From a virus (taxonomy: Duplodnaviria > Heunggongvirae > Uroviricota > Caudoviricetes): DNA of 23,537 nt. The notes under the pieces are model-generated. The model saw only the letters and a program-made list of their open reading frames with translations, was not told the DNA's origin and did no database searches. Within the stretch, counting starts at the first letter, position 1. Every line of letters starts with the position of its first letter. Location: the IMG/VR virus record IMGVR_UViG_2648501437_000035, one strand, 5' to 3'. Shown in pieces: positions 4,984-5,049 of this stretch. The position numbers and the translations under genes are program-made.

Positions 4984-5049
4984 AGAAATAGAAATAGAAA
5001 TAGAAATAGAAATAGAAATAGAAATAGAAATAGAAATAGAAATAGAAAT
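4984..5049. repeat. perfect tandem hexanucleotide microsatellite (AGAAAT)x11
   Basis: Read directly: 11 uninterrupted copies of AGAAAT (66 bp) in the intergenic region between the HNH gene and the 617-aa gene. Confidence 0.97.

Follow-up and report, generated by a model that had tools for sequence, protein, structure and literature searches.

The (AGAAAT)11 array of a lambdoid prophage is the E. coli O157 typing locus VNTR-9 and most likely a selectively neutral repeat

Is a perfect hexanucleotide repeat that lies between two divergent prophage genes a switch for its neighbors, or simply a tract that slips? The question is raised by a 23,537-nucleotide stretch of viral DNA (hereafter the window), a lambdoid, Stx-type prophage of Shiga-toxigenic E. 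coli, in which positions 4984-5049 consist of exactly 11 uninterrupted AGAAAT units (66 bp, counted by regular expression). Tandem Repeats Finder reports the array at 4980-5050 with a period of 6, 11.8 copies, and 98% matches, and in a search for repeats of period 1-9 covering at least 14 nt, (AGAAAT)x11 was the sole microsatellite in the window. A preliminary description of the sequence had counted the same eleven perfect units and had called them very unlikely by chance, and we agree on both points: 66 bp of perfect periodicity within 23.5 kb cannot be a product of chance. The description went further in its interpretation, proposing that the tract changes copy number by slipped-strand mispairing, that it would serve as a hypervariable VNTR-type marker, and that it might give phase-variable expression of an adjacent cargo gene. 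As set out below, slippage and marker value hold, both having been known already, whereas phase-variable expression finds no support.

The early-right operon of this prophage is encoded on the minus strand in the order cro, cII, O, P, ren, ninB, dam, ninE, HNH endonuclease, ninG, Ser/Thr phosphatase, and Q. Between ninE and the HNH gene, an AT-rich cassette has been inserted in the nin region, comprising the spacer with the repeat and a cargo gene, with a GC content of ~29-34% against 45-55% in the surrounding sequence. Its bounds are approximate (4803-7640) and were taken from the composition profile, from the point at which homology stops, and from the presence of NinE and Dam on the right. 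The left limit of homology with other lambdoid phages is window position 4802, at the ninF/ninG junction. The 46 bp at 4757-4802, which hold the start codon and ribosome-binding region of the HNH gene, are 93-96% identical to the ninF/ninG junction of many lambdoid and P22-like phages and are the sole part of 4200-7200 common to those many other phages; this segment is a typical mosaic joint at the left edge of the AT-rich cassette. The HNH endonuclease gene (4219-4785, minus strand, 188 aa from ATG 4785; Pfam HNH_3 at 4.2e-11, PHROG 99, and PGAP) is followed by ninG and diverges from the cargo gene (5366-7138, plus strand, 590 aa), which is antisense to the early-right operon. The tract thus occupies a divergent intergenic spacer of 580 bp, with the HNH start codon 198 bp away on one side and the cargo start codon 316 bp away on the other. 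An AT-rich gene placed between conserved early-right genes (ninE on one side, HNH-ninG on the other) and transcribed against the phage operon recalls the morons or lysogenic-conversion cassettes of the lambdoid nin region, a likeness that concerns the context of the tract and not the tract itself.

The repeat is not new. A full-text search for its unit led to locus TR1, published with the unit AAATAG and the forward primer ACTGCATGATAAGCCTCAGG (PMC2246123, Table 2); AAATAG is the AGAAAT unit in another phase, and both are 6 bp long. The TR1 forward primer (Noller) matches the plus strand of the window exactly (20/20) at 4888-4907, and the forward primer of VNTR-9 (O157-9, PulseNet; PMC3321953, Table A1) does so (27/27) at 4770-4796, where it overlaps the start codon of the HNH gene. 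These sites lie 77 and 188 nt to the left of the tract, respectively. Vhec4 and O157-9 are further names of TR1 (PMC3768571), and a PulseNet-derived protocol lists it as VNTR-9 (PMC3321953); by origin, the names go back to Noller 2003 (TR1), Lindstedt 2003 (Vhec4), Keys 2005 (O157-9), and PulseNet/CDC (VNTR-9), with the synonymy taken from the same two papers (PMC3768571, PMC3321953). The published properties of the locus are a 6-bp unit, 6-23 repeats, 15 alleles, a diversity index of 0.90, and 31.7% null alleles (PMC3768571, PMC3321953). In the O157:H7 strain G5295, all four published primers bracket an (AGAAAT)x11 array; the 30 nt preceding it differ from the window at 2 positions, its 15-bp right flank is identical, and the same flanks make the window's array orthologous to that of the O157:H7 reference context. 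The right flank (ATTAAAACAGACCAC, 5050-5064), delimited by comparing the junctions of G5295 and strain 2014C-3011 with the window, is common to all contexts. The tract is therefore the known, slippage-prone E. coli O157 typing locus TR1 / Vhec4 / O157-9 / VNTR-9, sharing with it the unit, the left flank with both forward primer sites, the 15-bp right flank, and the hypervariability (4-23 units). In contrast, the reverse primer sites of the O157:H7 locus are inside an IS30 element, while the window continues at this point into the rest of the spacer and the 590-aa gene.

Comparing repeat number across related genomes had been suggested as a check in the preliminary description, and the number does differ, ranging from 4 to 23 units across 524 complete E. 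coli genomes, with viral contigs falling within that range (4-17). Match lengths between genomes step by 6 bp, and arrays of 5, 6, 11, 16, 17, 18, and 23 units were seen between flanks that are 99.9-100% identical over ~2.9 kb. When the array is followed by the same sequence as in the window, an evenly spaced sample of 28 genomes has 5-18 units, with a unimodal distribution around 8-11 and an equal split between even and odd numbers (14 and 14). Among 23 full alleles of this window type, 21 are distinct, and 13 distinct alleles are left once the tract is masked. When the array is followed by IS30, genomes drawn at even intervals from the ranking have 4 to more than 11 units, and the complete O157-type amplicons among the matches listed have 9, 10, 14, and 17; the distribution in the O157 context draws on that evenly spaced sample, a few amplicon rows, viral contigs, and the literature, the sampling of amplicons having been swamped by IS30 copies. 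No allele below 4 units occurs among the 524 genomes, the weakest match in the ranking being one of 4 units. Prophage copies in E. albertii keep the tract at 6-8 units despite ~10% divergence of the spacer.

Most arrays are free of any interruption. Among the viral contigs there are two interrupted forms, aaaa[GGAAAT]x3aaaaaaaaa and aaaaa[AGAAGT]a (L211, from 2094 on the minus strand; L162, from 7106; L179, from 4588), and in the former the mutated unit GGAAAT is present in three consecutive copies, which shows that variant units, too, undergo slippage or duplication. Serial passage has yielded single-unit insertions at Vhec4 at a rate of 4.3-4.6e-5 per generation (PMC3777172). That published figure is the raised, reversible mutation rate of a slippage-prone repeat (PMC3777172), and the variety of alleles seen between identical flanks accords with it. 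With the passage data (PMC3777172) and the allele spread taken together, slipped-strand mispairing at this tract is established, as had been proposed, and the expected hypervariable marker is the VNTR already in use under its four names. The motif on its own is not locus-specific and carries no specific meaning: when species-representative genomes were searched for AGAAAT x4, arrays of this length or longer turned up in at least 120 unrelated ones. Taken as a discovery, then, the tract matters little, having been a routine O157:H7 typing marker since 2003 (~20 years), with its slippage rate already measured.

The right-hand side of the locus offers more. In G5295, the left end of IS30 directly adjoins the 15-bp right flank of the array, the junction falling after the position corresponding to window 5064, and both published reverse primers (TR1 and VNTR-9) lie inside that IS30 (coordinates 4265-4522 of the G5295 sequence, L003). 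In strain 2014C-3011, the other end of IS30 abuts window position 5063, with the 590-aa gene next to it (coordinates 3990-4010 of the 2014C-3011 sequence, L004), and the AC at 5063-5064 is thus an apparent 2-bp target duplication of IS30. The left flank and array are present in 524 of 5426 complete E. coli genomes; 245 of the 524 continue like the window, and ~280, mostly O157:H7, match the window from 4786 only up to 5064 at most. Judged by these junctions, the window is the uninterrupted, IS30-free form of the VNTR-9 locus, a form that we infer to be ancestral.

This arrangement bears on the typing assay. No reverse primer site of TR1 or VNTR-9 was found in the window with up to 3 mismatches allowed, because in O157:H7 both sites sit inside the IS30 that is joined 15 bp past the tract. 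The window accordingly has an orthologous array but no reverse primer site downstream of it, and its allele would score as null in standard MLVA assays, as would other IS30-free alleles, since the reverse primers depend on IS30. At this site, the IS30 belongs to the O157-type context alone. Strains and prophages with the intact form (the window and many O111, O145, and other STEC) would be recorded as null despite carrying a polymorphic array, which may help typing laboratories. In a German survey, null alleles at VNTR-9 amounted to 31.7%, a figure for which no specific explanation was offered (PMC3321953), and IS30-dependent reverse primers are a concrete candidate explanation for this high frequency. 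In the literature open to search, we found no paper linking IS30 to MLVA null alleles. This account of the null alleles is among the most useful new points to come out of the analysis, all of them practical, together with the spurious reading frame and, for the neighboring gene, a corrected start and the finding that it is no orphan, which are discussed below.

As for what the array does, we consider it very probable that the known MLVA array is non-coding, slips by whole units, and is selectively neutral, with no switch function for its neighbors. The cassette being an insertion in the nin region of lambdoid (Stx-type) prophages, the tract would be a hexanucleotide microsatellite within its AT-rich spacer; slipped-strand mispairing during replication would add or remove whole AGAAAT units and so provide a fast molecular clock between strains; and in the O157:H7 lineage, IS30 joined 15 bp to the right of the tract would have replaced the side bearing the cargo gene. 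The MLVA identity, the copy-number polymorphism, and the IS30 junction are demonstrated by the comparisons above. Neutrality, in the sense of no regulatory role, is what we infer, and some observations would also fit weak selection to keep the array: its divergent intergenic site upstream of two genes, its retention in E. albertii, the lower bound of four units, and the purity of most arrays.

The strongest competitor is that the array is a regulatory spacer, a contingency locus or rheostat in which copy number sets distance and helical phase and thereby tunes or switches the 590-aa gene or the HNH gene. Its intergenic position at 198 and 316 bp from the two start codons suits such a role, as does the lower bound of four units, and a slippage rate of ~4e-5 per generation falls within the range of contingency loci (PMC3777172). 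In a wedge model, each AGAAAT unit adds ~2 nm and rotates the flanks by ~203 degrees, and a looping or phasing effect would be geometrically possible if proteins bind on both sides of the tract. The spacer also contains, between tract and gene, a well-conserved block: while the spacer is where the cassettes of E. coli and E. albertii have diverged most (identity of 89.6%, with indels in addition, compared to 99.3% in the HNH gene and 95.1% in the cargo gene), 5143-5270 is much better conserved than the sequence on either side, especially 5272-5365. The actual promoter or operator of the cargo gene may lie in this block, within which we found no consensus promoter, no Rfam match, and no notable RNA structure. 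Nevertheless, we think a regulatory spacer unlikely. A consensus scan of 4786-5366, which covers sigma-70-type promoters, returned no such promoter on either strand and only a weak hairpin at 4929-4913, and a promoter in or next to the tract was rejected on this basis; the candidate promoter that had been proposed ~190 bp downstream (TTGACG...TAATAA) fails the -10 criteria of the same scan. Altered curvature had also been suggested as a consequence of copy-number change. In the wedge model, which uses dinucleotide parameters and whose result is qualitative, the tract is straight, with a net bend below 1 degree (0.5-0.8 degrees) compared to 81-108 degrees for phased A-tract controls, and intrinsic curvature was likewise rejected; phased A-tract DNA owes its planar curvature to a period of ~10-11 bp, unlike the 6-bp period here. 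The distribution of copy numbers is broad and unimodal (4-23 units), with the even split between parities noted above for the sample, and interrupted arrays are tolerated. In the ~280 O157-type genomes, the tract is kept and still varies where IS30 and unrelated DNA have replaced the cargo gene. Upstream of the chromosomal homologs of that gene (E. albertii, Salmonella, and Providencia), the sequence is unrelated and without the repeat, and homology to the chromosomal E. albertii copy reaches no further than 18 nt ahead of the start codon; the tract was therefore rejected as a conserved part of the cargo regulatory region. Promoter contingency loci such as the TAAA tract of Neisseria nadA, the 7-bp repeats of Haemophilus hmw1A/hmw2A, and the hif TA repeats resemble the tract as short tandem repeats upstream of a horizontally acquired pathogen gene, with slippage at ~1e-4 to 1e-5 per generation. 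In contrast to them, the tract is not in or next to a recognizable promoter, is 200-316 bp from either start codon, and outlives the loss of the gene. A contingency locus would have either a unit that is not a multiple of 3 within a reading frame or a position in or next to a core promoter; here the unit is 6 bp and therefore cannot shift a frame, the ORFs across it are not conserved, and no promoter was detected. We know of no ON/OFF phenotype for this tract, and its reading as a phase-variation element is unsupported and somewhat disfavored.

Two further proposals would place the function within a product of the tract. According to one, the array is translated from the minus strand as a dipeptide-repeat small protein, either an (Ile-Ser)n ORF of 60 aa (4936-5118) or a (Phe-Leu)n ORF of 87 aa (4845-5108), the length of which would vary without frameshift. 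All three minus-strand frames are open across the array, the minus strand is the one transcribed from PR, PGAP annotates the 60-aa ORF in some genomes, and one MLVA paper lists the locus as "inside ORF" (PMC3321953). We hold this to be extremely unlikely and have rejected it, given that the frame is not conserved in E. albertii (a 1-nt indel in the 93%-identical copy shifts the MSYHV... start to another frame and alters both ORFs), that neither ORF matches Pfam or PHROG, and that annotation depends on allele length. Furthermore, neither ATG is preceded by a Shine-Dalgarno-like sequence, and in O157, IS30 separates both start codons from the array. Because PGAP annotates the 60-aa ORF ("hypothetical protein" WP_001430471.1 in RefSeq) only in long alleles, as in 11-copy records and not in 5-6-copy ones, it is probably an annotation artifact; that pipelines call a spurious (Ile-Ser)n protein across long alleles may be of use to typing laboratories. 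The Hfq distal face binds A-R-N motifs, and the other proposal has the tract acting as RNA, with (AGAAAU)n forming a perfect (A-R-N)2n motif for that face in the 5' leader of the cargo gene, or (AUUUCU)n forming a U-rich element on the antiterminated early-right transcript, with an effect on stability or processing. The sequence does fit the A-R-N pattern by inspection, and the gene order requires transcription of the minus strand if PR transcripts are to extend to ninG and Q. The same scan, on the other hand, places no plus-strand promoter-like site upstream of the tract, Rfam gave no match at E<=1 over 4600-5500 (tract included), and the adjacent spacer at 5130-5290 (tract excluded) folds no better than shuffled sequence; on these last two grounds, a known or structured RNA element in the spacer was rejected. 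Copy number is also wide and unconstrained, and the tract persists in a defective, truncated prophage, so that action at the RNA level is to our mind scarcely credible. Any version in which the array is kept because its length tunes the divergent HNH / 590-aa pair, whether through the phasing or spacing of regulator or H-NS sites or through an Hfq-binding (A-R-N)n leader, strikes us as very unlikely. If such tuning were true, a routine typing marker would be a phage-borne contingency locus for a virulence-associated gene, a candidate effector.

Setting the neutral repeat aside, the 590-aa gene next to it is the more interesting element, as a member of a very small family that lacks annotation and is confined to pathogens possessing type III secretion. 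The tract had been placed ~235 bp upstream of a 617-aa gene. PGAP starts the gene at TTG 5366, behind a Shine-Dalgarno sequence (AGGAGG), and 5348 is where homology to the chromosomal copy of E. albertii sets in; for these reasons, the gene most likely starts at TTG 5366 and encodes 590 aa, the 617-aa reading being an over-extension, and the tract ends 316 bp before that start. Nor is the gene the orphan it had been taken for. Full-length homologs are found in E. albertii, both in the same slot of the prophage (93% identity) and next to an NleF-family gene in a chromosomal islet (71%), in many lineages of Salmonella enterica (48-51%), where the gene alone makes up an islet between cdd and sanA, and also in Providencia alcalifaciens. 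A profile search of 1.84 billion representatives retrieved 18 clusters, none with a known domain, and the family occurs only in STEC and these three species.

The cargo protein had no match in Pfam, NCBIfam, PADLOC, or a PDB profile search, and its PHROGs match is a family of unknown function only. An AlphaFold2 model built on a 23-sequence alignment (mean pLDDT 41.5) was too poor for a fold search; it suggests that the N-terminus, which is Ser-rich and bears LTLNDFLDN-type repeats, is disordered and that the core is helical and partly hydrophobic. Because the family is confined to enteric bacteria with type III secretion and has an NleF-family gene in its neighborhood, a candidate type III secreted effector is a reasonable guess.

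Two features elsewhere in the window deserve mention. An LpxR-family outer-membrane protein gene (1809-2768, plus strand; Pfam PF09982, 6.8e-40) lies between the phosphatase gene and Q on the opposite strand and counts as a second cargo gene of reverse orientation, in the late-regulatory region. At that position, the gene is absent from the prophage of strain 2014C-3050, which is otherwise identical. Finally, the replication gene O (minus strand, 10676-11614) contains at 11190-11267 direct repeats of ~20 bp (TCCCTCNTTTTAGGGGAA-like, 3.8 copies), which are the ori iterons to be expected in a lambdoid replicon.
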